Assembly (NCBI GenBank): GCA_050950285.1 | Contig: JBMNHG010000010.1 | Coordinates: forward strand, 1-56,671 | Length of the DNA stretch: 56,671 nucleotides | DNA from: Kiritimatiellia bacterium | Lineage (GTDB): Bacteria > Verrucomicrobiota > Kiritimatiellia > RFP12 > JBMNHG01 | Direction: 5' to 3' | Shown: one piece after another, positions 37,009 through 56,671 of the stretch | Numbering within the stretch: position 1 is the first letter of the stretch | Layout of the letters: every line of letters starts with the position of its first letter | Program-made: the position numbers and the translations under genes | Notes under the pieces: model-generated | The model's database searches: none | What the model was told of the DNA's origin: nothing | Seen by the model: only the letters and a program-made list of their open reading frames with translations

Positions 37009-37198
37009 GGTCTGTGATCCAATATCACGCGCGAGCGGACGGATCGACCGCCGCAGGTGAAACATGCGTTCCACTGGGAGGCCGTTTGAATGCGGGCGCG
37101 CGGGCGGGCTGGAGGGACGGCCTGCCCCTGTCCCAAACACGGCTGTTCCGGCATCGGCATCGGATTCCGGTCCCGGCAGGTGCTGCCGCATGGCGGCC

Positions 37199-39256: not shown

Positions 39257-39607
39257 TTGCTTCGCGGAAACATACGACGGCCGATGCCGTTCTGTCGAGC
39301 GGAAAGCGCTCCATCGGCCCGTCCGCCTGCGTGCATTCCGTATTGCAAGTCAGGCGGGCGGGAAACAGGGCGCAAAAAAAACGCTTTCTCTTTTCATGAC
39401 GCTCCGGTACAATCCCTTATGACGCTTTAACAATCCATGCCCTGATGCAATCCTCCGCACGTTGGAGATGGGAATGGGCAGCTAGGAAGAGGCGATGCCG
39501 GACAGGCTGGACAAGGTTTTGGTGGCGCATGAGCAGGCCGACGAGTCGCTCGCGGGGCGGATTGCCGCTGTTGCATCTACTTGTCTGCATCTCCAAGGAG
39601 TATCCTC

Positions 39608-40606
39608 ATGGGCATGACGCCGCGCGAAGTCGTTCGGCACACCGTTCGTTTCACGGGTGCGGATCGCATCCCCTACAACCTGGCGCCGCCCTACGGCACC
39701 GATTTCGCCCACGTGGGCATGACCCCCTCGCCCGATGCCCGGCCGCGGTCCGGAACCGACGAGTGGGGCTGCGCCTGGGAAAACATCGGCGTCTCCAATC
39801 TCGGCGAAGTGAAACAGCCCGTGCTGGCGGACTGGGCCGACTGGAAGGAATTGCGCATCCCCGACATCCGCGAACCTCGCCGCTGGGACGCACTGGCCAA
39901 AGCGCGCGAGCAGGCAGGCGACAAGTTCCTGATGGCCCACGGTATCTCGCTCTACGAACGCGTCCATTTCCTGCGAGGACTGGAAGATACCTGGATCGAC
40001 ATCTACACGGCCCCGGACGAACTGGGACGCCTGATCGACGTGCTGGTCGAGATGAACCTCTACGCCATCGGGCGGTTCGCGGAGGCCGGGGCCGACGGCT
40101 ACATGTTCTGCGACGACTGGGGGCTGCAACACAGCCTGATGATTTCGCCCGACTCGTGGCGCACGATCTGGAAGCCGCGCTACGCCCGCGTCTACCGCGC
40201 CGCGCACGACGCCGGCCTGCTGACCTTCCTGCACAGTTGCGGCCATATCGTCGACATCCTCGACGACCTGATCGAGGCCGGACTCGACGTCATCCAAATG
40301 GACCAGCAGGAGAACATGGGCGTCGACTTGCTGGGCGAGCGTTTCGGCGGCCGCCTGACCTTCTGGTGTCCGGTCGACATCCAGGCGACCATGGCATACG
40401 GCACCCCCCAGGAAATCCGCGCCTACTGCCGGAAGCTGGTGGCCACGCTGGGGCGTCCATCGGGCGGCTTCATCGCGCAATGGTATGCCGACCCCAAAGG
40501 GGCGGGCCACAAGCAGGAGTCGATCGATGCCATGTGCGACGAATTTCTCAAGCTCAGCCGCGCCTTCGGCGAACAAACCTCTCGTCGCCGGCATGTGCCA
40601 AGCTGA
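39608..40606 (+). CDS. Uroporphyrinogen decarboxylase family protein
   Basis: 'DEWGC', 'CDDWG', 'LHSCGHI', 'VDIQ'; AAGGAG RBS. Confidence 0.88.
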   Translation: MGMTPREVVRHTVRFTGADRIPYNLAPPYGTDFAHVGMTPSPDARPRSGTDEWGCAWENIGVSNLGEVKQPVLADWADWKELRIPDIREPRRWDALAKAREQAGDKFLMAHGISLYERVHFLRGLEDTWIDIYTAPDELGRLIDVLVEMNLYAIGRFAEAGADGYMFCDDWGLQHSLMISPDSWRTIWKPRYARVYRAAHDAGLLTFLHSCGHIVDILDDLIEAGLDVIQMDQQENMGVDLLGERFGGRLTFWCPVDIQATMAYGTPQEIRAYCRKLVATLGRPSGGFIAQWYADPKGAGHKQESIDAMCDEFLKLSRAFGEQTSRRRHVPS

Positions 40607-40899
40607 ACCCTGGATCCCGACCCCTTGGCGCACGGCAACCCTGTGGAAGCACCTGCGCACCACACCAAACCCACGTCCATTGAAAAAAAATCGGAAAAAG
40701 TTTGCGTCATCCGCCGGAATCCACTACACTTGCCTGTGCAAAACAAAAGGGCGGCACGTGGCAAAAGGCAGTGATGCGACGCCTTCTGCGGCGATCCGAA
40801 TCCTTTCCAGGACGACACGGACGACACGGCGGTTGCCGGGATGTCGGAAGTGCCGGAGTCAAAAGACACCCGTTACACACGCAAACAACAGGAGTGACC

Positions 40900-43338
40900 A
40901 TGAAACCATCCATTCAATGCGTACGCAGGAAACATCGGGTTCCGGGGAGGCGGATGATGCTGAAATCCGCGCGGGCGCTGCTCGTCGGCGCCGTCCTGTC
41001 CGCCGGCTTGTCCGCATGGGCGGCTTTGCCCGAGCAGACCGTGGCGGTGCTGGAGTATCGGGACACGTTCGATCTCCAGGGGACGAACTTCATCGTCGGC
41101 ACGCTGAAGACGCTGAACGACGCGGCCATCATCACCAACTCGACGGCGACGTCGGAAACGGTGGTTCTCACGGTCGGCGACGGCGACGCCGATTCCTGGC
41201 TGGGCGGCGCGCTTTACGGCCCCGTCGTGTTGCGCAAGGTCGGCTCGGGCGCCCTCTACTTGGACGAGACGCACTTCGTCGGAGACGTGACGATCCGGCT
41301 TGAGGGCGGCACCCTTTCGGGAAACGCCACGGCGAAGGACGATCTCGCCGTCGTCCAGTCGAATGGCGTCAACAAGGCGCAGATCGACGTCGTCGGCGCG
41401 CTCGCGGTTTCGGGGACGCCCGCTTTCGCCGTTCCCTTCCTCGGTTGCGACACGGTCTTCTTCTCCTATGCGTCCGCCTCGTCCGAAACTCTCGCGCTGC
41501 TGGAATCCGCGCCTGTCGCAGGCGCCAGCGACGGCGCGACGATCACGCGGAGCGTGACGCCGGAGGAGTTCCGCTACCGGGCCCAGGTGCCGCTGACGGG
41601 CGCATTCTCGGCCTCGGGCGGAGCGAAGGCGCGGATCGGCGATGACGTCGTGCACACGTTCGGCGGGAGCGGCACGTTCACCGTGACGTCCGGCGAAGGG
41701 ACGATGGAAGTGCTGATCATCGCCGGCGGCGGTGGCGGCGCGGTCGGCCAGGGCGGCGCCGGCGGCGCGGGCGGCGTCGTCTACCGCGAGGCCCTGCCGG
41801 TCTCGGCGCGGGCGGAACCGTACGAAATCGTTGTCGGCGCGGGCGGCATCGGGGCGCTCTGCGCGGAAGACTCGGGGACGATCGTCCGTTCCAACACGTC
41901 GGGAGGAAATTCGTCCGCGTTCGGTTTGACGGCGATCGGCGGCGGTCGCGGCGCACCGGCCGGCTCGCATGGCGCCGCCGGCGGCAGCGGCGGCGGCAAC
42001 TCGCGTCTCTACCCGCAGCAAACACACGGCGGCGCAGGGACGGAAGGCCAGGGGTTTGCCGGCGGAAACGGCACGAGCTATTCGGGCGGCGGCGGCGGCG
42101 GCGCGGGCGCCCCCGGCTCGCAGGGGCATCCCAGCCAGGGCGGCATCGGCCGCCGGTTCGACATCGCCGGCCGGGAGGTGGGCTATGCCGGCGGCGGCGC
42201 GGGCGGCATGTGCAGCGTGTCCCGCATGGGATGCGGGGGCCTCGCGGACGAGCGAAAGCGCGTCGGGCTGGACGGTCTCGACGGGGCCGGCTCGGGCGGC
42301 GCGGCCGGCGGCTTCCAGGGCGCGGCGGCGAAACTCTTCGGCGGGCATGGCGGCAGCGGCGTCGTCATCATCCGCTATCGTTCGAACGGCCAGGGATTCG
42401 GCGAGACGCTGCAAGGTGCGACAGGAGGGGACGAGATCGTGGCCTACAAGGAAAACGGCGTTACGTGGCAGGCGCACATCTTCCGCACGAACGGCACGTT
42501 CACGCTGCCGGCCGGCAACCGGCGGCTCCAGCTGCTGGCCGTCGGCGGCGGCGGTGGCGGCGGCGGCGAGCTCGGGCGGCGGCGGCGGCGCGGGCGGCGT
42601 CCTGATCGTCAGCAACCTCTTCGTCAACGCGGGGACGTACCCGATCGAAATCGGCGCCGGCGGACCGCCGCACAATGGCAGCAATTTCGCCTCGAACGGC
42701 TGCCCCACGCGGGCGTTCGGATTCACGGTGCCGGGCGGCGGATTCTCGCGCTATTCGACGGGTCAGTCGCTTGACGCCATGGCCGGCGCGTCGGGCGGCG
42801 GCGGCGCCTATGTGTCCAATCCAGCTTGGAAAAACACGCCGGGCGTCAATCAATATGGCCAGGCGCTCCCCGGTTATGAGCGGGATTACCTTCGCGGCGG
42901 CCGCGCGTACCTCGGGTGGGGGCATGACGGCGGCGTGGGGCAGCTCCGAATTCCTGGGGCTACGGCTATGCGGGCGGCGGCGGCGGCGCGGGCGAGCCGG
43001 GGCATACCTGGCGCGATGCGGTCAAGAAGGGGCACGGCGGCGACGGCGTGATGTGCGCGTTTTCGGGCGAGGAAAAGTGGTACGGCGGCGGCGGGGGCGG
43101 CGCGATCCTGTATGGCTCCGAATCGCAGTCGTCCGCGGGCGGCGCGGGCGGCGGCGGACGCGGCGGCTGGTATGCGAACAGCGGCGGTCCACGCGTGGAC
43201 GGCACGGCGGGCGAACCCAACACCGGCGGCGGCGGCGGCGGCGGATCACAAAATGGTTCGGGCGGCGCAGGCGGCAGCGGCATCGTGATCATCCGCTACC
43301 AGCTCTCGCCCCCAGGGTCAATCGTGATCATCCGCTAA
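40900..43338 (+). CDS. Secreted protein with two glycine-rich domains; frameshifts at ~42570 and ~42940
   Basis: Signal peptide; 'VHTF..SGTFTV', 'GGGGG.GGAGG', 'GGSGVVIIRY' twice; domain 2 continues across three frame segments. Confidence 0.75.
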
Positions 43339-43351
43339 ACGTGCGGTGTAT

Positions 43352-46300
43352 ATGAGAAATCTGCTGATCGTGTTGCTGGCCCTGGCCGGTGCTCCCATGT
43401 CCGGCAGGGCCGACGCACGGACGGAGGCGTTCGCCTTTCCCGTGGAAGGGCGAACGGCCGTCGTCTATGCGGACCGGCTTGACATCGTGCCGCTCGATGC
43501 GGACGCGCAGGAGTTCACCGTCGAGGCCGAGGCCAAGCCGGCCCGGCGGCAGGACGGCTCGGTCGAGATGAAGGCGGAAAAACCGTTTTGCCTCTTCCTC
43601 CCCGAGCGCGTGGTCAACATCGCGCCGTTGGCGCATGTGACCGTCTCCTCCAAGGGCGACCCGAGCCGGGGCTTCCGTCCCACGCCCGGCCAGAACATGC
43701 CCGAGTCCCTGGTGGACGAGCGGGTGAACGCGACGAAGAACTTCGAATTCGCCGCGCGCGAGACGCCGCCGACGGAGGACGACCCGGAGTGGATCGTCCT
43801 CAGCTGGAAGCAGGACGTGCCGATCGGCGGGCTTTTCATCATGACGGGGCAGTGGGAGTCCTTCCCGCACCATGACAGCGTCCGCGTCGAAACCTACGTC
43901 GGCACCGGCGACCCGCGCATCGACGGCGCCCCGGCGTCCTGGCAGGAACAGGCCGGCGCCTGGTCGCCGATGCCGAAGAACGACAACGCCAACTTCCGCT
44001 GCTGGCGCCATTGGACGGCCGACGCGCCGTTTTCCTCGGCGGCGCTCCGGCTGCGCTTCGTCGGTGGCGGATGGGCGTTGCGGGGACAGCAACACGAAAT
44101 CCCCGTGCCCGGCCTCGGCGAAATCGCCGTGCTCTCGCCGTGGACCGAGCCGGAACCGCCGCAACGGACGGACGGCGCGGACGGCACGGACGGTATCCGC
44201 ATCGCGTTCGACATGCCGTTCGACGGCGCCGCCACCATCCAAATCCGCGACGGCGCGGGGCGCGTCGTTGCCAACCCCGTCGCGGACCTCCCCTTCGCCG
44301 CCGGCGCTTGCGAGGCGACGTGGGATCTGACCGACATCGACGGGCATCCCGTGCTCGAACCGGGCGCCTACTCGTGGCGCGGCGTGGCGATCCCGCCGCT
44401 CACGCTCGACTACCGCTACACGTACTACCCGCTGGGAATCCCGTCCGACCGGCGCCCCTGGCAGACCGTGGACGAGACGGGCGGCTGGCTCGCCGACCAC
44501 GACCCGCCGCGCGGCGTCGTGCGGGACGGCTCCAACATGTGGCTCAACGCCTGGGCGGAGCACGGCGACAGCGTCATCCTCACGGACATCGACATGAGGA
44601 AGCTGTGGGGCGAAACGCGCTTCTGGGTGGCCGTGCCGCAGGAAATCTGCATCGACAACGGCTTCTGCTACGGCTATTCGCAGGCGGGATGGAACGGCAC
44701 CGACGAGGAGATCATCCGCATCGACCCGGCGCGCGGCTACCAGTCGAGGAAGGTGTTCCTCAAGAAGAACCCGCCGCCGGAGAAAGACCAAAAGGCCATC
44801 GACTTCTTCGATGTCACCGTGTCCGGCTTCCAGGTGCGCGGCGATACGGCGTTCGTCTCGCTCGGCCGCGAGAACCGCATCTGCATCTACGACATCTCGA
44901 AGGGCAACGCCGCGCCGCACCGGCACTTCTCGTGGGCCACGGTGCATACGCAGTTCGACGAATGGAAGCCCGTTCTCGTGAAGGAGATCGAGCTGCCGAC
45001 GCCGGGGCGCCTGCGCCCGTACGGCGACGGCCTCCTGCTGACGACGTCCGGGCGCGACGTCCTGACGCTCGACGTCAAGACGTTCGAGACTCAGACGCTC
45101 TTCACGACGGACATCGAGAACATCCTCGGACTCGGCGTCGGGGACGACGGCCTCGTCTGGATCGGCGCGGGCGAACCGCTGCACCAGGTCTTCGCCTACA
45201 CGCCGGACGGCCGCCGCGTGAAGACGCTCGGCAAGCCCGGCAAGCGGCGGATCGGCGCATGGGACAACGACGATCTCGAAGAACCCGCCGGCGTCGAGGT
45301 CGACGCGCGGGGCCGCGTCTGGGTCGCCGAGCACACCCACTGGGAGAAGCGCGTCTCGATCTGGGATCCGAAAACGGCGCGCTGCGTGCAACAAGTTCTC
45401 GGGCCGACGCAGTACGGCGGCGACGGGTGCATCGATCCCGCCGACAGCACACGACTTTTCTACCGCGGCCTCGAACTGCGCCGCGACCCCTCGACGGGCG
45501 ACGTGACGCCCGTGAACCTCGTCTACCGCCCCGACGCGCCCGAGTTCCCGCCGTTTGCCCCGGCCGACTATCCGAGCTACTGCTTCCGCTCGCGCGGCGA
45601 GCTGTGGTTCACGAGCTTCCAGCCGCCCCACTGCCACCCCCACTGCGTGCTCTGGAAGTACGAAAAGGACCGGGTGCGCCCCGTGGCGGCGGTCGGCGCG
45701 GTCAAGGATTTCCGCAGCGCCTTCCGCGAAACCGGGAACATCACCAACGCCATCCCGTCGATACAGGCCGAACCGGGGATGCTCTTCACCTGGACCGACC
45801 TCGACGACGACGGCGGGATTTCAGAGGACGAGGTGAAGACGCGTGTCCTCGAGTACGACGGCAAGCCGATCGAAAGCGTCACCGCATCCTGGAACTGGCG
45901 CATGAACGCCGCCTTCGAAGTCGCCGGCGTGACGGACCTCTACAAGATCGGGCGGCTCATCGCCTTCAAACCGGCAAGCTTCACCGACCGGGGCTATCCG
46001 GTTTACGAGATTCCGGAGGAGACGAAGCCGGGCGTCATCGAGGCGCAAGCGCTGATGCCGGATTCCAACGGGAACATCATCGCGCTGGGGCGTCCGCTCG
46101 TTTCGCTGACGCCCGACGGCGTCGAACGCTGGCGCTACCTCAATCAGTGGCCCGGCCTCCACGCCGGCCACCGCACGACCGCAGCCGGGAACGAGCCGGG
46201 CGTCCTGATCGCGCCGACGCGAATCTGGGGCATGGTGCCGACGGACGGCGACGCGGGCGAAGTGGTCGCGTTCAATTCGAACCTCGGCTGCTCGTACCTG

Positions 46301-47269
46301 ATGACGGCCGACGACGGGCTCTACCTCGGGCGGATCTTCCGCGACCAGCGCGTCGCGGCGACGGTCTGGAACTACAACGACATCCCGGACTCCCGCACGC
46401 TCGCCGAGACGTCGCTCTACGACGAACATTTCGGCGGCACCTTCCAGCGCATCCAGGGCGCGGACGGACGCCATCACTACACGTACGTCGTCGGCAAGGG
46501 GCACTGCGCCGTCGTCGAGCTCGCCGGGCTCGACGGCATCCGGCGGCTCGCCGGAGGCACCTTCGCCGTCACGGCCGACCAGATCGCCGCCGCCGTAGCC
46601 CGCACGGAAAAGGCCGCGGCGAAGAGGCACGAGCCCAAGGTCTACACGGTGAAGCGCGGTGCGCCGGTCGAGCAGGACGCCGCCATCGACGGCTTCCGCC
46701 TCGGATACGACGAGACGGCCCTCTACGTGTACGCCACGGTCCGGGACGATGCGGCGCCGTTCGCCAACGACGGGAAGAATCCCTTCGAGCTTTTCAAAAG
46801 CGGCGACACGCTGGAAGTCATGCTGCGCACCGGGAAGGACGCGGGCCTGAAGCGGGGCGTCCAGCCCGGCGACATCCGCCTCGTGTTCGCGCCGTTCGAA
46901 GGAAAGACGGTCTGCGTCCTCTACGACTACCTCGTGCCCGGCACGCCGGAAGAGGCCAAGGTCGGATTTTCGAGCCCCTGGCGTACGGCCACCGTCGACC
47001 GGGTCCGCATCCTGGACGACGTGACGGCAGAGGTCGCCCGCTCCGGCAACCGCGTGACGCTGAAGGCGACGGTGCCGCTCGCGGCGATCCACTTCGCGCC
47101 CTCGGGCGAGGCGAAGGGCGACGTCGGGCGCGTCCTTTCCGACGCAAGCGGCACCCGCGCGGCGGCGCGACACTACTGGTCGAACAAAAACACGGCCATC
47201 ATGAGCGACCTGCCGACGGAAGTGATGATTGACCCCGACCTCTGGGGCACCTTCCGATTCGAGCATTGA
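43352..47269 (+). CDS. Large secreted multidomain protein (FlgD-like Ig, NHL/beta-propeller, CBM9-like C-terminus)
   Basis: Signal peptide; 'IRDGAGRVV...WDLTDIDGH..EPGAY', 'PAGVEVDARGRVWVAE', 'LGYDETALYV...VRD'. Confidence 0.75.
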   Translation: MRNLLIVLLALAGAPMSGRADARTEAFAFPVEGRTAVVYADRLDIVPLDADAQEFTVEAEAKPARRQDGSVEMKAEKPFCLFLPERVVNIAPLAHVTVSSKGDPSRGFRPTPGQNMPESLVDERVNATKNFEFAARETPPTEDDPEWIVLSWKQDVPIGGLFIMTGQWESFPHHDSVRVETYVGTGDPRIDGAPASWQEQAGAWSPMPKNDNANFRCWRHWTADAPFSSAALRLRFVGGGWALRGQQHEIPVPGLGEIAVLSPWTEPEPPQRTDGADGTDGIRIAFDMPFDGAATIQIRDGAGRVVANPVADLPFAAGACEATWDLTDIDGHPVLEPGAYSWRGVAIPPLTLDYRYTYYPLGIPSDRRPWQTVDETGGWLADHDPPRGVVRDGSNMWLNAWAEHGDSVILTDIDMRKLWGETRFWVAVPQEICIDNGFCYGYSQAGWNGTDEEIIRIDPARGYQSRKVFLKKNPPPEKDQKAIDFFDVTVSGFQVRGDTAFVSLGRENRICIYDISKGNAAPHRHFSWATVHTQFDEWKPVLVKEIELPTPGRLRPYGDGLLLTTSGRDVLTLDVKTFETQTLFTTDIENILGLGVGDDGLVWIGAGEPLHQVFAYTPDGRRVKTLGKPGKRRIGAWDNDDLEEPAGVEVDARGRVWVAEHTHWEKRVSIWDPKTARCVQQVLGPTQYGGDGCIDPADSTRLFYRGLELRRDPSTGDVTPVNLVYRPDAPEFPPFAPADYPSYCFRSRGELWFTSFQPPHCHPHCVLWKYEKDRVRPVAAVGAVKDFRSAFRETGNITNAIPSIQAEPGMLFTWTDLDDDGGISEDEVKTRVLEYDGKPIESVTASWNWRMNAAFEVAGVTDLYKIGRLIAFKPASFTDRGYPVYEIPEETKPGVIEAQALMPDSNGNIIALGRPLVSLTPDGVERWRYLNQWPGLHAGHRTTAAGNEPGVLIAPTRIWGMVPTDGDAGEVVAFNSNLGCSYLMTADDGLYLGRIFRDQRVAATVWNYNDIPDSRTLAETSLYDEHFGGTFQRIQGADGRHHYTYVVGKGHCAVVELAGLDGIRRLAGGTFAVTADQIAAAVARTEKAAAKRHEPKVYTVKRGAPVEQDAAIDGFRLGYDETALYVYATVRDDAAPFANDGKNPFELFKSGDTLEVMLRTGKDAGLKRGVQPGDIRLVFAPFEGKTVCVLYDYLVPGTPEEAKVGFSSPWRTATVDRVRILDDVTAEVARSGNRVTLKATVPLAAIHFAPSGEAKGDVGRVLSDASGTRAAARHYWSNKNTAIMSDLPTEVMIDPDLWGTFRFEH

Positions 47270-47367: not shown

Positions 47368-48572
47368 TCAAAGGCTCCCTCCCCACAGGCAATTGTCGAA
47401 CGTTGCGGAAGGATGGCGCCCCACGAGGGCATAAGCCGTCGGGCTCGATTCGCGCGGCACGTTTTCGCAAGTCGACGAGATGCCGCTCCACGGGAGTCAT
47501 CTTGGCTTCGAAGCGCGAAGGTGCGGCCGTCACGGGCAAGAACGAAATCAATCTCGCCGCCCCGGTTGGAGAATGTGACGGCACCATAGGGCTGGAGCTG
47601 GTGACAGAGCGTGTTTTCAAACTGCGCACCGCCAGACAAATCGGCGTTGATGTTGGCAATGCCGGTATCAACGAAAAACACCTTCCTGGGGATGCGTTCA
47701 CGGACAGACGGACTTTTCGCATACGCCGGCAAAAGGCGGATCAAGTAGGTCTGCTCAAGAAAAGCGATGTAGTTCATGACCGTCGGACGCGACAGGCCGA
47801 TGATCTTCGACAGCTCATCGATGTTCAGCCGCGAGCCGACGCGCGCCGCAAGCAGGACAACGAGTTTTTTGAGGTCGGCGATGGACTTGAAGTCTGCGAG
47901 CTGCATGACGTCCAGATTGATGTAAGAGCTGTAAATGACATCGAGCATCCGTCGCTTGCGCTCACCCGTGTCGCTCAAGGCCACGGCCGGGAACCCGCCG
48001 TAGGCGATGTACTCCTCGTAAAGCGCCGTGAGCGCTTCATAGGCGAAGGTGTCGAACTTGATCTCCGCAAGCGCGGCAAAGTCCACCCTCGGAGGGATGA
48101 ACCGCGCTCCCTTGATCGCAAGGAACTCCCGGAATGAAAGCGGAAGGAGCTCGAAAACAATCTTGCGGGCCGAAAGAGACTCCGAAAAATGGTTTTTGAG
48201 ATAGAAGGCGCTCGACCCCGAAAGAATGAACTTGATGCCGTAGTGGTCGTACAGGTATTTGACGACCCGCGGGGACTGCTTGACGTACTGGATTTCGTCG
48301 ACGGCGACCACAGCGCGGCGGGAAAGATCCAGTCCAAACCCGCGCAGAGCATTCGCGACACCATCGAAATCCTCGGATTCGAAGAGACGCTGGGCGCTGA
48401 CAAGGGTCAGGTCGAGGTAGAGCGTATTGTCCGGAATCTGCCCGATCAGCCATTTCAAGGTGGTGGTCTTCCCCACTTGGCGAGGGCCGGTGATAACAAG
48501 AATCTCCCGACTGCCCAGCTCGTTCCTCAAGGCAGGCCAGAGATCCCTTTCAATGATAGGTGTTGAATCCAT
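47368..48572 (-). CDS. AAA+ ATPase (AAA_14 + DUF4143), two frameshifts near the 3' end
   Basis: 'GPRQVGKTT', 'DEIQY', 'SGSS', 'GGFP', 'KVFFVDTG', 'EIDFV'; natural tail 'FEAK...ALVGR...LWGGSL*' is split over frames. Confidence 0.85.
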
Positions 48573-48597
48573 GCCAGAATTTAACCATATTCTCGGG

Positions 48598-48624
48598 TTT
48601 GTGTAAAGTGCAAGTTTACACAAA
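48598..48624. promoter_or_regulatory. Palindromic operator candidate over the ATPase promoter
   Basis: TTTGTGTAAA-N7-TTTACACAAA overlapping a minus-strand TTGCAC (-35-like). Confidence 0.55.
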
Positions 48625-48844
48625 TCGCAAAAAATGAAAAGAGCCGGTGAAAAATCCCCTCCTTCTCGCCCGCGCCCTTGGTGCGGTCTCCGCAGGCAAA
48701 TGTCCCAAGATCAAGCGTGTCCGACCCCGTGGCAGCCTGTCAACCCCGGGAACGCGAGGCGCCGCACTCGCCCCGTCGCCTTCGCCCCCTCGTTCACGTT
48801 GACGACTCTACCGTTTCTGCATTTCGTGTACGGGTGTCGCTGTC

Positions 48845-49204
48845 TTATTCTTTTAGTGTTCGATCCTCGCCAAGACCCGCTTCGAAGACGGCCGCGATGT
48901 GAAGTTTTGCCCCACAAGCGGCGGCGTAGCGATAAAGGGTGGAGAGGGAAAGATCCTCGCCATTGACGATCTGAGAGATGCGCGGCTGGCTGACGTTCAT
49001 CCGCTTCGCGATTTCCTTTTGCGTGAGCTTCGACTTTTTAGCGATTTGCCGGGCAATCCCAGCGGCCTCGTTTTCAGCGATCGTCTCGGCGAGGACATCC
49101 GCGTACCCCGGCATGGCTTCCGCCTTCCGAGTCAACGCGTTCGTCACAACCATGCGATCCTTCATCCAGGCTTCGCGTTCTTTTTTTGTCATCGGTTTTT
49201 TCAC
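48845..49204 (-). CDS. XRE/HTH_3 protein, HigA-like antitoxin
   Basis: 'LTQKEIAKRMNVSQPRISQI...LSTLYRYAAACGAKL'. Confidence 0.85.
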   Translation of the reverse strand: MKKPMTKKEREAWMKDRMVVTNALTRKAEAMPGYADVLAETIAENEAAGIARQIAKKSKLTQKEIAKRMNVSQPRISQIVNGEDLSLSTLYRYAAACGAKLHIAAVFEAGLGEDRTLKE

Positions 49205-49290
49205 AGTCCAAGTCCTTTCTTGATCGCCAAGGCGTGTTTGAGTGAGGGTTTTCGCTTACCGCTCCGCTGGGAACGTGAACGACGAAGGGT

Positions 49291-50287
49291 GCCTCAGAGG
49301 TGGGGCGACGCCGTCCCGGCGAGCCGCCTTTCCCCCCACCCTTTCCACCATAATCTTGAAAAAGGCTTCGAGATTATGGCGACCTGCACAAAGCCCCAAA
49401 GGGGCGGTCTCACCTTAGCCCAGGGCAAGCGCCGCGCCGCCCTGGGATGCAAGGAAAACCCACCGTGGCCTGAAAGGCCACCTCAATCGCCGCTTCAATG
49501 GAGCCGCGCCCAAAGTGGACGCGGCGTCCTCGCCGCGTGTCGCCTCCGTCAACAGGGGCACGGGCATTCCTGTCCGTGTTCGTCCACGGGTTGGAAAACC
49601 CGTGCCCCCTTTGCCCGCGCCTCGGAGGTGGGGCGACGCCGTCCCGGCGAGCCGCCTTTCCCCCCACCCTTTCCACCATAATCTTGAAAAAGGCTTCGAG
49701 ATTATGGCGACCTGCACAAAGCCCCAAAGGGGCGGTCTCACCTTAGCCCAGGGCAAGCGCCGCGCCGCCCTGGGATGCAAGGAAAACCCACCGTGGCCTG
49801 AAAGGCCACCTCAATCGCCGCTTCAATGGAGCCGCGCCCAAAGTGGACGCGGCGTCCTCGCCGCGTGTCGCCTCCGTCAACAGGGGCACGGACATTCCTG
49901 TCCGTGTTTGTCCACGGGTTGGAAAACCCGTGCCCCCTTTGCCCGCGCCTCGGAGGTGGGGCGACGCCGTCCCGGCGAGCCGCCCCTCGCCCGCGCCCCG
50001 GCGCGGTGCGCCTCAGAAGACAAAACACCCGCGAAAACACAATCGTGCTTCAATGGAGCCGCGCCGATGAAGGCGCGGAAATTTCGCAGGCAAATGTCCC
50101 AAGATCAAGCACCTCTGCAACAGGGGCACGGACATTCCTGTCCGTGTTTGTCCACGGGTTGGAAAACCCATGCCCCTTTGCCCGCGCCTCGGAGGTGGGG
50201 CGACGCCGTCCCGGCGAGCCGCCCCTCGCCCGCGCCCCTTTGCACCGTGCGCCTCAGAAGACAAAACACCCGCGAAAACACAATCGC
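49291..50287. repeat. Tandem mosaic of REP-like palindromes and CRISPR repeat copies (328-bp and ~240-bp units)
   Basis: Block gcctc.gaggtggggcgacgccgtcccggcgagccgcc at 49291, 49619, 49947, 50186; CRISPR-like repeats at 49492, 49820, 50047. Confidence 0.9.
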
Positions 50288-50686
50288 GCTTCAATGGAGC
50301 CGCGCCGATGAAGGCGCGGAAATCTGATCGTGATTTCCATGGGTGTGCCTCTTCGCTAGTTGCTTCAATGGAGCCGCGCCGATGAAGGCGCGGAAATCGC
50401 GAACCTCACCACCCACCGTTCCCTCGGCATTTTGCTTCAATGGAGCCGCGCCGATGAAGGCGCGGAAATGGAGGCGGAATATGAGGGCTGGCGGATGCGC
50501 CTTCAGCTTCAATGGAGCCGCGCCGATGAAGGCGCGGAAATTTTGCACTCAGCAACCATAACTACCCATTTCGGTAGGCTTCAATGGAGCCGCGCCGATG
50601 AAGGCGCGGAAATCCCGGCACTATTTCCCGGCCGGGGAAATAGCAGGAAAGCTTCAATGGAGCCGCGCCGATGAAGGCGCGGAAAT
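50288..50686 (-). CRISPR. Type I-G CRISPR array: 6 identical 36-bp repeats, 5 spacers (36-38 bp)
   Basis: ATTTCCGCGCCTTCATCGGCGCGGCTCCATTGAAGC (minus strand) at 50288, 50362, 50434, 50506, 50578, 50651. Confidence 0.97.
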
Positions 50687-50873
50687 AGTGCCTATGACAA
50701 GCCGTTGCTTGTCAGGGCGTTGCAAAGCCGTTTTCGAGCGGTCTTGAAAACAGTACCCCAAACGGGGTTCCCGATCAAGCCAAAAGCGCTTGATTGGGAA
50801 AGAAAAAGTCGATTTTCAAAGAGCGTCGAGCGGTGTCCGCAAATTCCACACCATTGGACCGCTCGAAATCAGG
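50687..50873 (-). promoter_or_regulatory. CRISPR leader
   Basis: Relatively AT-rich gap between cas2 and the first repeat, containing repeated motifs. Confidence 0.8.
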
Positions 50874-51164
50874 TCAGACAATCTGGGAGCGTTGCTCCGG
50901 TCGCCAGACTTTGCCGACGTAGGCGATTTCCGGGATGGGACGTTCGCCTTCAACAGCACCGGCTTCAACAAGCAGGGTTTGATCTTCGTTGGCATTCATT
51001 CGCGCTTTCAGTTCCTCGATAAGCTCCAAGCGTTCCCGGGAGTTGAGCTGGCAGCAGAAGACGGAGTATTGCACGCGTTCGCCCCAGCCGCGCATGAGCT
51101 TGAATATGCGCGCCCGGCGTTTGTCGTCCGGTATGTCGTAGGAAACCAAGTAGAAACGGCGCAT
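50874..51164 (-). CDS. cas2: CRISPR-associated Cas2
   Basis: 'YLVSYDIPDDKRR...GWGERVQYSVF'. Confidence 0.96.
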   Translation of the reverse strand: MRRFYLVSYDIPDDKRRARIFKLMRGWGERVQYSVFCCQLNSRERLELIEELKARMNANEDQTLLVEAGAVEGERPIPEIAYVGKVWRPEQRSQIV

Positions 51165-51175
51165 GACAGAATCCT

Positions 51176-52840
51176 TCAGCGTGTGGTGATGCCTGAATAG
51201 GACGGGATTTCGCCGCGAAGAACCTTGGCGAGCAGCTTCGCCTGCACGCGGATCACCGACCGCCATGAACAGCGGTAGTCGAACACGGGATGGGTGATCA
51301 TCTGGTCGAGGCGCAGCTCGTAGGCGCGAATCAGCGCCTTCCGGGCGGTGTCGTTCATGGCGCAGCCTGCGGGTCCCGTGATGAAATCGGGCGGAGCCAC
51401 CATGCCGGTGTTGATGGCGGAAAGGACTGCGGAATCCGCGACCAAGGGGCGGAACTCCTCCATGAGGTCGAGCGCCAGCGCGGGACGCCCGTGGCGCGGA
51501 CGGTGGAGAAAGCCCCAGAAAGGATCGAGGCCTTCGGCGAGCAGGGCGACCGTCGCCTCTTTGACGAGCATGGCGTAGGCAAACGAGAGCATGGCGTTGA
51601 CCGGATCTTTCGGGGGACGGCGATTGCGCGATGTCGGCGAAAAGTTTTCCCGAGCCGGACCTTCGGCAAGCATGGTGCCAAAGTTGGCGAAATAGAACGA
51701 AGCAATGGAGCCTTCGATACCCATGAGCTGGTCAACATCCACGCAGGTGTCGATCTGGGCGATCAGGCGGCGCATGTCGGCAAGGGGGGCGTCAATGTCG
51801 CTTGTGGTATTCCGCCGCAGCAGGGTTCGCTGGTTCAGTGTTTTGGCGCGGACGAAGGCACGCGCGAACGTGAGGCGGCGGCCGTCGTCCGCTGCGGCGG
51901 CGAACTGCGCGGCGCGATCATAGGCGTTGCGCAGGCCGATGCCCGCCGTGACTCCGTAGAACCAATGCCCCATCGAAAGGTGTACGACCGGGATGCCGCG
52001 CTGGCAGAGCAGGTGGAGACACTGCGCGGAAACGGAAATGTTGCCGCAAAGGACGAGCTGGGAAACGTCTTTCAGGGGGAACACGCCCAGTTTCGCATGG
52101 CCTTTTTCAACAACCAGGGCTTCGCCGGACTTGCCGACGCGGGCACCTTGCTCCTGCACGTACAACGGGAGGGCGTCGTCGCGCGCGGGATAGAGACGGC
52201 GGATGTCGGGAGGCTCCCCCTGCCGTCCGGTCAAGAGGTTCGTTTCATCCGGGAGGCAAATGCCCGACAAGGAACAGCCGACACATTTCGGCGAGTCGGT
52301 AAGAGGCGGGGGCGGATGCGAGTTGTTGGCAACGGCGCGGGCCTCCGAGATCAGGTGCAGGGTGCGGGCTTCAAGTTCGGGCGTGAAATCGACGCGGACA
52401 CGTCGGCGGGACGCGGCAAAATAAAGCATGCCGAAATCGGAGGCGTGGCCGTGCTCGCGCAAGAGGAGCCCTTGGCACATGAGCTGGACACGTTCAGGCT
52501 CGTAGCAGCGTTGGGGCGTGGGCGGCACGCTGCCGCGCTTGGTATCCACGGGCACCGCCTGGCCCGCTTCGAGTTCCAGCAGGTCGATCTTGCCGGACAG
52601 CCCCAAGGTTTCGGAGCCCAGCGAGACCGAGCGGGCGATGACGGGCGGATCGTCGGGGTCGTCGGGCGGGGGCGGCAATGGATCGTCTTCGCCGTCGATG
52701 CGGGAATGGACGGAGCGCCCATGAACCGTATAGTCATTATCCTCCCATCGCTCCCCTACGAACATGAGGTGAAAAAGGCGCGGACAGTAGGCGTACTCGT
52801 TCACCATGCGCACGGGCAGGATGGCGGGGGATTCGCTCAT
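51176..52840 (-). CDS. cas1: Cas4-Cas1 fusion (type I-G hallmark)
   Basis: Cas4: 'YCPR', 'GKIDLLE', 'CVGCSLSGIC'; Cas1: 'GIEG', 'RNRRPPKDPVNAMLSFAY', 'LALDLMEEFRP'. Confidence 0.96.
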   Translation of the reverse strand: MSESPAILPVRMVNEYAYCPRLFHLMFVGERWEDNDYTVHGRSVHSRIDGEDDPLPPPPDDPDDPPVIARSVSLGSETLGLSGKIDLLELEAGQAVPVDTKRGSVPPTPQRCYEPERVQLMCQGLLLREHGHASDFGMLYFAASRRRVRVDFTPELEARTLHLISEARAVANNSHPPPPLTDSPKCVGCSLSGICLPDETNLLTGRQGEPPDIRRLYPARDDALPLYVQEQGARVGKSGEALVVEKGHAKLGVFPLKDVSQLVLCGNISVSAQCLHLLCQRGIPVVHLSMGHWFYGVTAGIGLRNAYDRAAQFAAAADDGRRLTFARAFVRAKTLNQRTLLRRNTTSDIDAPLADMRRLIAQIDTCVDVDQLMGIEGSIASFYFANFGTMLAEGPARENFSPTSRNRRPPKDPVNAMLSFAYAMLVKEATVALLAEGLDPFWGFLHRPRHGRPALALDLMEEFRPLVADSAVLSAINTGMVAPPDFITGPAGCAMNDTARKALIRAYELRLDQMITHPVFDYRCSWRSVIRVQAKLLAKVLRGEIPSYSGITTR

Positions 52841-52907
52841 CGTGAAACATCTCCGCTTGGTTTTCTTTTTCCAACAGCAATGTGGGGCGGTTTCTTTCTA
52901 TCGCCCC

Positions 52908-53696
52908 CTAAACTTGCCTCGCAGGAGTGAAATTACGTTTTTGATCGATGACGATTCGCTGACTGCGGAAGACTGCGGAAACACCGATCAAAGAAAGCGC
53001 TGCCGCATCTGGCTCGTCCCGCTGAAGTTCTGCGTGAGCAAGCAACGATCGGCAGACGTCCAAAGTGATCGGAACATTCCAAATCGGCCATGTAAAGAAA
53101 GTGTCGTTACTTTTTCTGCCCTTGAAACCCGTCGTCTCGAGCGTGCGCGTTGTCGGCATCACCGGGAAAAGGGGAAGCGCCTCAATCGCCAGACGGTTGG
53201 CGCCGCGGACATTCGTTGCCTTTTCATCGCTTGGGGCTTTCCAACGCAGAGCGTAGCGGCGATCGTCGGCGGGGTCCCAACGCATGGAGAAATCAACATC
53301 AGCATAACGCCATGGGCCAAAAAGCGCTTCTCGCAACTGCTTGAGCGAAGTAAGCTTGCATATCTCATTCATGAACTTAAGAAAATGCTGGTGGCCGGAA
53401 CCGCTCATCGTACGCCATGCGGTATCAGAATTGATTGCAGGCTTGTATCGATCGGGAACTGAAGCGTCCCCCAATGCGGCAATGAATTCAAGATCCCAAG
53501 TCGAACCAGAAAACCATTTTTCACGAGCCGCTAAAACAGCCTCGCGAAACTTATCGACAGGCATCTGCGGGTTGTTGGCCATCGTAAGCGGCGGGGCGTC
53601 TTTGCGAGCTCTAAGAATCCGAGCAAGGGAAAGGATCGAGGGTTGCTTTTTTGTTTTGAGAACAGGCGTCCACTTGCCGCCATCTTGCATCCAAAA
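52908..53696 (-). CDS. Type I-G large-subunit-like protein (Cas8g2 / Cas3-extension family), 5'-truncated at the junction
   Basis: 'RWDPADDRRYALRW', 'GANRLAIEALPLFP', 'FTWPIW'; directly upstream of cas4-cas1. Confidence 0.7.
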   Translation of the reverse strand, partial: FWMQDGGKWTPVLKTKKQPSILSLARILRARKDAPPLTMANNPQMPVDKFREAVLAAREKWFSGSTWDLEFIAALGDASVPDRYKPAINSDTAWRTMSGSGHQHFLKFMNEICKLTSLKQLREALFGPWRYADVDFSMRWDPADDRRYALRWKAPSDEKATNVRGANRLAIEALPLFPVMPTTRTLETTGFKGRKSNDTFFTWPIWNVPITLDVCRSLLAHAELQRDEPDAAALSLIGVSAVFRSQRIVIDQKRNFTPARQV

Positions 53697-54716
53697 CAAG
53701 GAACTTTACAATATATCTTTGAGTTTCAATCTTTAGTTTGTGAGTTAACTGAAATGGATGCAAGTAATGCTTCAATGTATGATGGAGCAACTGCTACAGT
53801 TGAAGCTATTTTTATGGCTGTTGTTCACACTAAAAGAAATAAAGTTTTAATTGCAGATACTATTAATCCTAATACATTAGAGGTTATTAGGACTTATTTA
53901 AAATATAGAAACATTGAGATTGTTTTAGTTAAAAACAATAACTTTTTAGTATGCTTAAATGATTTAAAAGAAAAGTTAGATAGTGATGTAGCCGCTTTTG
54001 TGCTTCAAACTCCTAACTTTTTTGGTCTTTTAGAAGATGTTGAAGTAAGAGAATTATTAGATCAATATAAAAGTTTGTTTATTGTTAACTCGCCTCTAAA
54101 TAGTTTAAGTATTCTAAAATCTCCAGGTGAAATGAAGGCTGATATTGCCTGCGGAGAGGCTCAAAGTATGGGACTGTCACTTGCTTTTGGAGGGCCATAT
54201 TTGGGGTATTTAGCATGTAAATCTTACCTAGTAAGAAAACTACCTGGACGTATTGTAGGCCTAACAAATGACATCGAAGGACATCGTGCCTTTGTTTTAA
54301 CATTGCAGGCTCGTGAGCAACATATTAGGAGAGAAAAAGCTAGTTCTAATATTTGTTCTAATCAATCTTTGATGGCTTTACAAGTTTTATTATATGCGAT
54401 GTTAATGGGAAAAAATGGCTTAGTAAATTCTAATTTAGAATCTTTATCTAAAGCACATTATTTATATAATGAATTACTAAAGATAAAAGGATTTAAAAAG
54501 GTAACTAATCATGAATTCTTTAATGAGTTTGTTATTTATTATGATGGTGATATTGAAAAATTAAATAGCGAATTATTAAAAAATGATATCTTAGGTGGAC
54601 TAAATCTTTCTAAGGTTTCAAATGAATTAAAAAATCATTTGCTTCTTTGTGTAACTTATACTAAAACTAAAGAAGAATTAGATAACTTTTTAAAAGTTGT
54701 AAGAGGTATAAAATAA
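53697..54716 (+). CDS. gcvPA: Glycine dehydrogenase subunit 1, 5'-truncated; AT-rich foreign segment
   Basis: 'QGTLQYIFEFQ', 'NASMYDGAT', 'LQAREQHIRREKASSNICSNQ'. Confidence 0.92.
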   Translation, partial: QGTLQYIFEFQSLVCELTEMDASNASMYDGATATVEAIFMAVVHTKRNKVLIADTINPNTLEVIRTYLKYRNIEIVLVKNNNFLVCLNDLKEKLDSDVAAFVLQTPNFFGLLEDVEVRELLDQYKSLFIVNSPLNSLSILKSPGEMKADIACGEAQSMGLSLAFGGPYLGYLACKSYLVRKLPGRIVGLTNDIEGHRAFVLTLQAREQHIRREKASSNICSNQSLMALQVLLYAMLMGKNGLVNSNLESLSKAHYLYNELLKIKGFKKVTNHEFFNEFVIYYDGDIEKLNSELLKNDILGGLNLSKVSNELKNHLLLCVTYTKTKEELDNFLKVVRGIK

Positions 54717-55103
54717 TGTATGATAAATTAATATTTGAAATTAAAGATAAAGATATTTGCGAGAAAAGCAATTTTAGTGAAACTTATGAAATAGATAAGA
54801 AATATTTAAGAAACTTTTTAGATTTACCTAATTTAAGTGAAGTTGATGTTGTAAGGCATTACACTAATTTATCACTTAAAAATTATGGTGTTGATCAAGG
54901 ATTATATCCGCTTGGGTCTTGTACAATGAAATATAATCCTAAAATTAATGAAGTAGCAGCAAGCATGTCTAATTTTACTTGCCTTCATCCACTTCAACCT
55001 ACCTCAACTACTCAAGGCGCATTAAAAATATATTATGAAACTTCTAAGATGTTATCTAGTCTAACTGGAATGAGTGAATTTAGTTTTAATCCCTTCGCAG
55101 GAG
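54716..55103 (+). CDS. gcvPB: Glycine dehydrogenase subunit 2, 3'-truncated
   Basis: 'EVDVVRHYTNLS', 'YPLGSCTMKYNPK'; breaks at 'PFAG' before the expected AHGE. Confidence 0.9.
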
Positions 55104-55696
55104 TTCCTTGTGGATTAAAGCAGTAAAGCTCTCCGGGACCTTCGGTAGTTTCTCGAGTTCCAACCAACCATCGTTGATTCCCAATAGTCGATGTGAAAGG
55201 TTGCCAATTGAAGCGAAAAAGTGATACAACTCCAGTTTGAAAATCAAGATACCCTATATGAGAATCAGTTCTTAGTAAAGCACCCTTGTCTCCAGTTTTA
55301 CTTATAAACATCGGAAAGGGTAAGTTTTCTCCAATAGAGATGGTTTTGATTCCTTGAGAATGAACAATGTGGAGAACATTCGACTTTTCAAAAACGAAAA
55401 AGTTAAAGTTGCTGTGGAAACAAAGGTTAATCTTTTCTCGGGATCTGAAAGAAAAATTAGGGTATTTATCTATTTTTTTTTTCAGTAGTAAATATGCTTT
55501 CCCAATTATCAATATCAATCATTTTTAACTGAAATGATCCAATCTTTTCAAATAAAGGAAGTTTTACCCATTCAACATATTTCCCTGTTTGGAAGAGTGG
55601 TTGGTTATTATCTTTGGGATTCACCATTGCTAATTTACTCTCAAATAGCTCTTGTTTTTCTTCTTTTGGTTTTTTAAACCATTTGAAAAAAGCCAT
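55104..55696 (-). CDS. Hypothetical protein, AT-rich, frameshifted at a 10-T run (55473-55482), 3'-truncated
   Basis: AAAGGAGGT RBS before the ATG at 55696; ORFs 55466-55771 and 55033-55518 join across the homopolymer. Confidence 0.55.
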
Positions 55697-56021
55697 TGCA
55701 GGTTCGTTACCTCCTTTATGTTCTATTTTGGCGGAGAAGGGGTGATATGAGTGTGATAAGAATAAAACCATGATAATAAAATTTCGTCTTTTAATTTTTT
55801 AATTTCTAGATCTTAAGTCTCTTAAGACATGAATCTACTTTACTTAATAAAGTTTTTTACAAAATGATGACTTTGCTTAAATTGTACGTGAATTTGGATC
55901 TTTCCATCTGAAGAAAGCAAAAAAAATGGAAGGAAGAATGATTGGTAGTCTGGAATTGGCAAAGGCGTCCCCATCCTTTTTTTGTACTTTCACTCGAATA
56001 TTATATTAGATATTTTAGTAA

Positions 56022-56645
56022 TTGATCCTCATTACGGCGGCGGTCATCGTCAGTGGATGCACGTCGCCTGAGGCTGACGGAGACGCACAACCCCTCTCTC
56101 CCACCCCTGCACCTGAGGTGACAGAGGGAGAGGCGGTGGGAGGAAGTCTCCCGGCGCCCACACTGCCCGCACCCGCCCGGCAGGAGGCGGTGCCACCATA
56201 TAAGGTAGGGTTCGTCGACCCCGCGACCTACCATGTCCCGACCCCGACGCCCACGATCGCGCTCAGAAGACCGCCCGACGACGTCCGGGTCTCAGAGAGG
56301 ATGGTTGAGTATGCAACGGCAACCGTCGACCGCCCTCCCAGGGTTCTTGCCACCGAGGTCTACCATATTCCCTTCCCGTACTGGGACCTGACCGTGGAGA
56401 TGACGCCGACGAACGAATATCCCTGGTTCGTGATGGAGGTCCGGGACCCGGAGGACCCGAACCGGATCATCAAAACGATCCGGTACTCCCGGCACGATAT
56501 CCTCAGCGCCGGGGAAGACTCCGAAAAAAAGAAGGAGACGTTCACCATCAGGGAGGGGTATGGGGACTACTACTTCATCATCCGTTCGGAATCGCTCAAA
56601 TCCCTCACCATAATCATCGAGGTTCCGGAGAAGTACCTCGTCTAA
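56022..56645 (+). CDS. Secreted or lipid-anchored hypothetical protein, Methanomicrobiales-like style; start uncertain
   Basis: 'LITAAVIVSGCT' signal, Pro/Thr-rich linker, AGA/AGG-rich codon usage, pyrimidine-rich tail. Confidence 0.55.
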   Translation: MILITAAVIVSGCTSPEADGDAQPLSPTPAPEVTEGEAVGGSLPAPTLPAPARQEAVPPYKVGFVDPATYHVPTPTPTIALRRPPDDVRVSERMVEYATATVDRPPRVLATEVYHIPFPYWDLTVEMTPTNEYPWFVMEVRDPEDPNRIIKTIRYSRHDILSAGEDSEKKKETFTIREGYGDYYFIIRSESLKSLTIIIEVPEKYLV

Positions 56646-56671
56646 CCCTCCTCTCCCTCTTCTGCTCTCCG

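Follow-up and report, generated by a model that had tools for sequence, protein, structure and literature searches.

Dispersed palindromic elements and CRISPR repeats in the trailer of a type I-G array from a Kiritimatiellia bacterium

The trailer of a CRISPR array (short palindromic repeats, clustered and regularly interspaced) in an uncultured bioreactor bacterium of the Kiritimatiellia raises the question of why repeats continue beyond the regular array inside long units of palindromic DNA, and whether such units are a new RNA device or a product of genomic wear. The window, the whole stretch of 56,671 nucleotides (nt) analyzed here, is the entire contig C10 (JBMNHG010000010.1) of a 12-contig, 4.05-Mb genome (G000, GCA_050950285.1), and the module in question occupies 49291-50323 next to a type I-G array; positions without a contig name are those of the window. 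The evidence assembled below makes it likely that the decaying, oldest end of this array became a landing and recombination site for repetitive extragenic palindromic (REP) and bacterial interspersed mosaic element (BIME) type sequences of the same genome, and the module has the look of such wear, not of a novel RNA device.

The array is ordinary at 50288-50686, where six identical 36-nt repeats enclose five unique spacers of 36-38 nt on the minus strand. The repeat, GCTTCAATGG...GGAAAT on the plus strand, is perfect at 50288, 50362, 50434, 50506, 50578 and 50651, and once more within the palindromic mosaic at 50047-50082 (minus strand). A regular repeat-spacer architecture is confined to 50288-50686; across 49291-50287 the repeat-like elements are spaced by 328, 227 and 241 bp and the intervening DNA consists of repeated, dispersed elements. 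The 187-nt gap between cas2 and the first repeat, at 50687-50873, is the leader (minus strand; the counterpart on contig C11 of the same genome differs by 7 mismatches and a 34-nt indel). It is followed at 50874-53698, on the same strand, by genes assigned through profile matches as cas2 (50874-51166), a cas4g/cas1g fusion (51176-52840; NF049935, 703.9 bits) and a Cas3-extension-family gene (NF049934) that lacks the first ~33 profile positions. As the C11 version of the locus runs on into Cas3g (TIGR02621), Csb2 (TIGR02165) and Csb1/Cas7g, the system is of type I-G. The reverse complement of the repeat terminates in ATTGAAGC, and in the fold of the repeat RNA (50288-50323, minus strand) a stem of 7 bp is followed by 4 nt of linker and a handle of 8 nt. 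This is the geometry of the characterized Csb2 substrate of Thioalkalivibrio sulfidiphilus, for which a cut 4 nt past a 7-bp stem that leaves an 8-nt handle, and binding to the hairpin rather than the handle, are reported (PMC9638904); cleavage of the present repeat would be structurally possible. Leader motifs of C10 also stand beside the cas4/cas1 gene of relative G022 (76% protein identity), and the degenerate terminal repeats of two relatives (locus L009 of genome G008 and locus L019 on a contig of a metagenome-assembled genome, MAG) lie on the side that matches the low coordinates of the window. From the repeat end, the fold, the position of the leader and cas genes at the high-coordinate side and the degenerate repeats of relatives, the reading direction of the array follows as that of the minus strand, which puts the module on the trailer side, where the initial annotation had placed it.

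Within the module, repeat-like elements begin at 49492, 49820, 50047 and 50288, and the start-to-start distances of 328, 227 and 241 bp reported earlier are reproduced exactly. Blocks between them were delimited by whole-genome BLAST of the region, a 12-mer frequency profile and motif counts, and are named P1 (short form P1s, long form P1L), P2, P3, P4, HP, u31 and S35. The order on the plus strand is P1s-HP-P2-remnant-P4-P3 twice, then P1L-u31-repeat-S35-P3, P1L-u31-repeat and the regular array. The first 328-bp unit, A1 (49291-49618), comprises P1s 49291-49332, HP 49333-49388, P2 49389-49491, the CRISPR remnant 49492-49510, P4 49503-49549 and P3 49550-49618; in the second, A2 (49619-49946), the same blocks stand at 49619-49660, 49661-49716, 49717-49819, 49820-49838, 49831-49877 and 49878-49946, so that P4 overlaps the remnant by 8 nt (49831-49877 versus 49820-49838). 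Tandem Repeats Finder reports a period of 328 at 49291-49984 (2.1 copies, 99% matches, score 1367) and a period of 241 at 49878-50323 (1.9 copies, 96% matches, score 832), consistent with pairwise comparisons in which A1 and A2 differ at 3 of 328 positions and the two P3-to-repeat segments, B1 and B2, are 96.1% identical. Beyond A2 lie P1L at 49947-50015 (fold -42.1 kcal/mol, z only -0.9), the second copy of u31 at 50016-50046 (minus strand, from motif counts), the intact repeat, the spacer-sized 35-nt segment S35 at 50083-50117 (minus strand), the third P3 copy at 50118-50185 (from BLAST, fold and motif counts), P1L again at 50186-50256 (from BLAST and motif counts) and u31 at 50257-50287 (minus strand). 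This last block is a 31-nt locus-specific flank with a small hairpin and a U-rich run, located directly downstream, in the sense of the transcript, of the repeat at 50288. Four of the open frames that cross the module were compared with Pfam and none yields a family, and no Rfam family is found over 48500-51000 at E ≤ 0.1.

S35 shares 26 identical nt with 48691-48716, which lies at 48664-48716 in what looks by eye like an incomplete, diverged duplicate of the P1L extension together with a flank similar to u31. Two origins of S35 are suggested by these sequences: it may be the oldest spacer, or it may have been copied from the nearby flank. Its candidacy as a self-targeting spacer was rejected, the identity leaving out the first 7 positions next to the protospacer-adjacent motif (3/7 match by eye) and 48691-48716 resembling a diverged copy of the same flank.

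The two variant repeats at 49492 and 49820 had been described as keeping the 19-nt handle side of the repeat while carrying a different hairpin loop. The shared side is real, since the variants are identical to each other and follow the true repeat over their first 19 nt on the plus strand before diverging; the supposed loop is the start of the dispersed palindrome P4, with no mutated loop present. From the loop onward, 26-27 nt of the variant match P4 at C4:92144, at C8:297311 and in several copies of relative G040, a match that covers the loop letters AAAGT and 20-odd bases past the hairpin and extends to C11:102248. P4 in G040 and one copy in the own genome are preceded by a GC-rich arm of their own (for example GCCGCGCC or GCGCGC), so that the CRISPR-specific part is limited to the first 11 bases, GCTTCAATGGA, which are followed by the 8 bases GCCGCGCC common to repeat and P4. 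Copies of P4 in CRISPR-free regions of G040 carry both the AAAGT loop and the GC-rich arm, which assigns the variant loop to P4. Most simply read, the variants represent the remnant of an old repeat recombined with P4 inside the shared 8-nt arm, and their identity to each other follows from the position of both inside a recent duplication. Such chimera formation is the reverse of ordinary terminal-repeat decay: the trailers of G008 and L019 are ordinary, and their terminal repeats are eroded at the GCTTC end, the opposite repeat end from the remnants described here.

The remaining blocks also belong to families that are dispersed in the genome and support the REP/BIME-like makeup proposed for the long units in the initial annotation, whose three palindromic blocks all exist and fold as hairpins. 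P3 consists of two hairpins inverted relative to each other, a doublet that resembles the REP doublets forming hairpins known as REPINs (fold -37.9 kcal/mol, z -4.4; three copies in the module). It has 98 BLAST matches genome-wide, six of them in two CRISPR loci, and its two hairpins occur in 86 and 82 copies outside CRISPR loci over 6 contigs when up to 2 substitutions are allowed, most copies being embedded in a conserved ~110-nt element. The trailer's linker variant has its match in a cluster at C2:874.5-875.8 kb, where P3-type hairpins stand on either side of a Y1_Tnp-domain gene (C2:874977-875750, 257 amino acids (aa); PF01797 above cut-off). P2 (49389-49491 and 49717-49819; fold -54.6 kcal/mol, z -3.0) has 14 BLAST relatives, all on C8 at ~80% identity, and most of these form 152-153-bp tandem arrays at C8:54.6-58.8 kb around an IS200-like Y1_Tnp gene that P2 units flank (C8:57440-57892, 150 aa; PF01797, 4.6e-21; NF033573, 58.5 bits versus a cut-off of 55). 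P2 has diverged too far for a strict 31-mer count, which accordingly finds no copy of it outside CRISPR loci. The recommended search for transposases of the REP-associated tyrosine transposase (RAYT) or IS200-like kind therefore returns two Y1 genes, each with elements of a trailer family beside it. The P1 core is present in eight copies in two CRISPR loci and in four on C8, and P4 has three other copies with extended context in the own genome (C4:92144, C8:297311 and C11:102248). The HP hairpin (fold -17.3 kcal/mol, z -2.2) and u31 have no copies in the own genome outside CRISPR loci. Several traits of REP/BIME systems are thus present in this genome and its relative G040, with stable hairpins, many dispersed copies, Y1 genes flanked by elements, and mosaic clusters of several families in the window module, at C8:54655-58800 and in the G040 clusters L005, L021 and L022.

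Several further arrangements of these families were seen along the way. The region C8:53000-60500 (L001) is a ~5-kb hotspot of stacked small repeats that includes the P2-type arrays, a P3 copy and the IS200-like Y1 gene (L001:4441-4893), together with a 56-bp tandem repeat (L001:5275-5482) and recurring composite units of ~600 bp. The P3-bearing ~110-nt element or its core forms head-to-tail runs at C6:189075-189680 (6 copies, 121-bp spacing), C2:967558-968086 (~9 copies, 66 bp) and C2:570512-570665 (~4 copies, 51 bp). At C11:102248-102340 a P4 copy is followed by 35 nt and by a copy of window positions 48744-48775, and the same join recurs in contigs of two other metagenome runs, X1 and X3; from this join, the DNA to the left of the helix-turn-helix (HTH) gene that follows the module also contains REP-family pieces.

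An earlier proposal that CRISPR repeats had been captured into an amplifying unit does not hold at the scale of the genome: the full repeat is found at 32 sites and its 19-nt half at 36, all of them in CRISPR loci and none elsewhere. As no repeat lies outside CRISPR loci, the term fits only local duplication, here two tandem events. The palindromic part does recur without CRISPR sequences among relatives. A search with 48640-50330 against 41 genomes (the own genome and 40 relatives) gives matches in 13, the best being G040, from a different family of the same order; the sole genome of the same genus, which is 92% complete, has no match to this query. In G040, a CRISPR-free intergenic cluster after an ABC-F-type gene (L005:1450-1890) has the order P1-P3-P1-P1-P3-P1, L021 contains tandem P4-P3 units and L022 contains P4, P3, an HP-like hairpin and a P1-like element, the last two loci likewise CRISPR-free, and individual P1 and P3 copies share 95-96% identity with their counterparts in the window. 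Judged from sequence, the body of the module belongs to a type of BIME-like mosaic that is common in this order. Exact-pattern scans of public metagenome contigs for the chimeric and the true repeat, and of public genome contigs for the chimera, return no match, with the records of the own genome possibly excluded from both. A degenerate repeat pattern finds four loci on three contigs of two MAGs, two of these loci overlapping on one contig that ends inside the array; among them the trailer was read for L019, and L020 was compared by BLAST only.

A sequence of events that would account for this structure begins with at least four dispersed families (P1-P4) and HP piling up downstream of the terminal repeat in non-essential DNA, with the Y1 (RAYT/IS200-like) transposases of C2 and C8 probably mobilizing the REP families in trans. 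An older repeat would have been cut short by recombination with P4 through the 8-nt arm GCCGCGCC, leaving 11 CRISPR-only bases. An earlier event may have produced the second copy of P3-P1L-u31-repeat, the 241-bp unit, through template switching or through duplication followed by repeat-repeat deletion, and a recent 328-bp duplication could have arisen by unequal crossing-over or template switching between flanking P1/P3 copies, P1 bounding the unit on both sides. No function of the module is demonstrated. The likeliest effect would be incidental, with hairpins at the 3′ end of the transcript blocking read-through or decay of the precursor CRISPR RNA (pre-crRNA) from its 3′ end before the HTH gene, a possibility that follows from the co-directional arrangement of the array, the module and the HTH and ATPase genes.

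A number of observations weigh against this account of wear. No transposition event has been observed, and the order of events is a reconstruction. The best NCBIfam match of the C2 Y1 protein, NF047646 (REP-associated tyrosine transposase), scores 74.5 bits where the cut-off is 80. The repeat at 50047 is perfect and both repeat hairpins are predicted to form in the 277-nt unit, making processing possible, and the chimeras keep a strong hairpin, the 4-nt linker and the 8-nt handle, which could reflect constraint rather than chance. In RNA form the chimera folds into a 10-bp hairpin with an extension (-24.5 kcal/mol, z -5.1) in which part of the linker before the handle is paired. Terminator-like sites on the minus strand, found in u31 (50288-50271) and in every P2 copy, are not significantly enriched (7 versus 4.0 ± 2.4 in shuffled sequences). 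The module is also nearly unchanged in the C10 and C11 versions of the array, which have no spacer in common; this near-identity is not evidence of selection, as the flanks are equally conserved (99.8% around the HTH gene and 100% in the Cas3-extension piece).

Among the alternatives, the one that survives best, still unlikely, is that the REP cluster has been selected as a terminator or 3′-end stabilizer and would insulate the array transcript from the HTH and AAA-ATPase genes. REP elements of E. coli stabilize upstream mRNA and can attenuate transcription. The array, the module, the HTH_3 (XRE-type) gene at 48845-49204 (119 aa; Pfam PF01381, 3e-11), which is downstream of the array and also present in the C11 copy, and the AAA_14/DUF4143 ATPase gene are all on the minus strand, the module is full of strong hairpins, and the terminator-like sites at u31 and in each P2 copy face the same way. 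The lack of enrichment of such sites over shuffled sequence argues against selection for termination, as does the fact that relatives do without such a module. Upstream of the ATPase gene, five consecutive large genes occupy 37064-47269 on the plus strand (788, 412, 690, 226 and 1307 aa), and among their products a Pfam family is assigned to that of 690 aa alone (Gly_rich_2, 3.3e-19).

It is less probable that the module is a working RNA device, in which read-through of the pre-crRNA would allow Csb2 to cut at the intact and perhaps the chimeric repeats, giving structured RNAs of ~240-330 nt or CRISPR RNA (crRNA)-like decoys or regulators. The repeat has the geometry of a Csb2 substrate (7-bp stem, 4 nt, 8-nt handle; PMC9638904), and the module is present in both versions of the array. 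Structure prediction for the 277-nt unit 50323-50047 retains the hairpins of both intact repeats, so that release of a ~241-nt species with a 205-nt structured 'spacer' by Csb2 would be possible. In the chimeras the 5 lower pairs of the stem persist, along with linker and handle; cleavage of the chimeras is uncertain because the longer stem pairs part of the linker before the handle. Against such a device, the segments behind the repeats have only 10-12-nt prefix matches as seeds, about the chance number for 4 Mb and none at a recognizable promoter, which gives no support to targeting or to a regulatory role of the CreA/CreR kind. The unit bodies are generic REP sequence known from CRISPR-free clusters, trailers are plain in the relatives that carry this repeat family, and the module is conserved no better than its flanks. 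The embedded repeat of the C11 version is itself mutated by a substitution at the first linker base, and one of the 31 regular repeats over both arrays is altered.

A broader conjecture, to which we give little credence, is that repeats and REP hairpins of this lineage swap parts through the common arm GCCGCGCC, the trailer being a natural intermediate at the overlap of a Y1-REP system and a Csb2-processed array, from which Csb2, by cutting at the embedded intact repeats and possibly the chimeric ones, might yield handle-bearing REP RNAs of ~240-330 nt. If so, these REP-structured RNAs could titrate Cascade subunits or protect the 3′ end of the pre-crRNA, and repeat-REP fusions could give rise to new repeat variants or arrays. 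It is more doubtful again that the elements at 49492 and 49820 are truly diverged old repeats of the array whose likeness to P4 is incidental. The loops of variant and true repeat are equally long (6 nt), and the 3′ arm of the variant equals that of the true repeat plus one inserted base over 'GGCGCGG'; against this, 26-27 nt match P4 from the loop onward, including the loop letters and sequence past the hairpin, and the recent duplication explains why the two variants are identical.

The structure itself is found more than once. Positions 48701-50323 recur at C11:1-1621, with 5 differences over the 1033 nt of the module (99.5%) and one gap in 590 nt of the HTH flank (99.8%). Short-read contigs of four other metagenome runs cross the junctions exactly or nearly so, each covering part of the stretch; tandem copies are not countable from such contigs. 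Parts of the stretch occur in 18 studies. A contig of X8 spans 49628-49983, that is P1-HP-P2-remnant-P4-P3-P1, with one other letter; X3 contigs cover 49628-49907 and 50055-50147 (repeat-S35-P3); X1 contigs cover 49534-49611, exactly and with copy-specific letters, and 49628-49891; and an X20 contig covers 49730-49949, across the remnant-P4-P3 junctions. None of the 24 runs listed is an RNA run, X20 being flagged as probably DNA. Both copy-specific variants of P3 are represented (49534-49611 in X1 and 49628-49907 in X3), and X1 also has the C11-type letters at 50045, 50046 and 50058. The same arrangement on C11 and the junctions in four other runs indicate that the module is not an assembly artefact, which answers the doubt about the duplications raised in the initial annotation; block order and junctions are to be trusted more than exact copy numbers. 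That the tandem units are mis-resolved repeats of a long-read metagenome assembly is accordingly the least credible explanation of all. In its favor, other parts of the contig are untrustworthy (at 53699 it is joined to foreign-looking DNA of low GC), short-read contigs differ by 1-nt homopolymer lengths at 48644 and 48821 and tandem copies are beyond counting with them; against it stand a block order assembled twice with allele-specific letters, exact pieces spanning junctions in X8 and X3, and the two P3 variants in X1 and X3.

Of the two versions of the locus, that on C10 has 5 ordinary spacers and that on C11 has 24, with none in common, and identity between the versions is 96.5% for cas4/cas1, ~91% for cas2 and 100% (791/791) for the Cas3-extension piece. 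Contig depth, a weak measure, was compared in three runs between the shared flank and the C10-type cas2 piece, giving 47.6 versus 44.1, 5.76 versus 7.32 and 5.45 versus 4.89. C10 and C11 probably carry two strain alleles of one locus, as C11 starts inside the shared flank, the homology of C10 ends at a chimeric junction, the flanks are 99.8-100% identical and the depths are similar; a true duplication giving two CRISPR loci in one genome was judged less likely on the same grounds. The C11 array (L002 1586-3412) has an unusual spread of spacer lengths, which start at 36-41 nt in the oldest part, grow to 41-49 nt toward the middle and shrink to 36-44 nt close to the leader, and its cas4/cas1 reads as split open reading frames of 360 and 310 aa, which may be assembly indels. 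Contigs of three runs are each one base short at 48644 (in a run of A) and at 48821, which suggests 1-nt assembly errors in the window. Over the 2.3 kb from 53699 to 56000 the GC content is 0.21-0.36, compared with ~0.54 before it. Homology to C11 stops exactly at 53699, which is also where the truncated Cas3-extension gene abuts a gene for a glycine-cleavage P-protein without the first ~105 positions of its profile. In the final 670 bases (56000-56671) the DNA is GC-rich again, with no match elsewhere in the genome, and the end of C10 looks chimeric. Elsewhere, C6 starts with 2 kb at 0.32-0.34 GC, and C9 is at 0.34 GC throughout.

Taken as the wear of an old array end by the host's own REP elements, the module suggests that such an end erodes by recombination with REP repeats through a shared hairpin arm, besides point decay. 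It also calls for caution with array-calling software and with taking 'variant repeats' for evolved forms. REP/RAYT-like systems with BIME-like clusters are documented here for a lineage of the Planctomycetes-Verrucomicrobia-Chlamydiae (PVC) group, in which they are little described. Should the embedded repeats be processed, the locus would be a natural test of how Csb2 and Cascade handle very long structured 'spacers'. In a narrow literature search, no account of a CRISPR trailer with fused REP clusters turned up.

The closest comparison within CRISPR systems is with the degenerate terminal repeats of arrays, which are likewise found at the leader-distal end, where the last elements are no longer full repeats. 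In G008 and L019 the repeat end that abuts the flank decays, whereas here the handle-side end is kept and fused to a mobile palindrome, and, unlike the trailers of ordinary arrays, the 'spacers' consist of 191-292 nt of repeated elements. CreA/CreR-type systems are crRNA-like regulators derived from degenerate repeats, in which repeat-like elements outside the regular array undergo Cas6-type processing in units of ~70 nt and a pseudo-spacer is complementary, on its PAM-proximal side, to the promoter under regulation. The module resembles them in having repeat-like elements outside the regular array that are potentially subject to Cas6-type processing, and differs in that chance-level seeds are all that was found as targets of its pseudo-spacers, it forms the trailer rather than lying inside a cas operon, and its units measure 230-330 nt instead of ~70. 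A GTAG-type 5′ tag is a feature of proteobacterial REPs. Mobile elements in CRISPR loci and REP/BIME/REPIN-RAYT systems are each already known. Insertions of insertion sequences (IS) and miniature inverted-repeat transposable elements (MITEs) occur in CRISPR arrays and cas genes (PMC10359306, PMC3119063 and PMC3718332), and these likewise interrupt a CRISPR locus with mobile DNA; here, by contrast, the invading sequences are REP palindromes, with no terminal inverted repeats or target duplications seen, they occupy the trailer without disturbing the active portion of the array, and a repeat is fused to them by microhomology. The nearest parallel for the palindromes themselves is the REP/BIME/REPIN-RAYT system of E. 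coli and Pseudomonas, as outlined in 10.1101/2022.05.22.493013, with which they share short hairpins, an inverted-doublet family of ~85 copies, mosaic clusters and flanked Y1 genes. The present system differs in that its host belongs to the PVC group, the C2 gene scores under the curated RAYT cut-off, and one of its clusters abuts a CRISPR array and has recombined with it.

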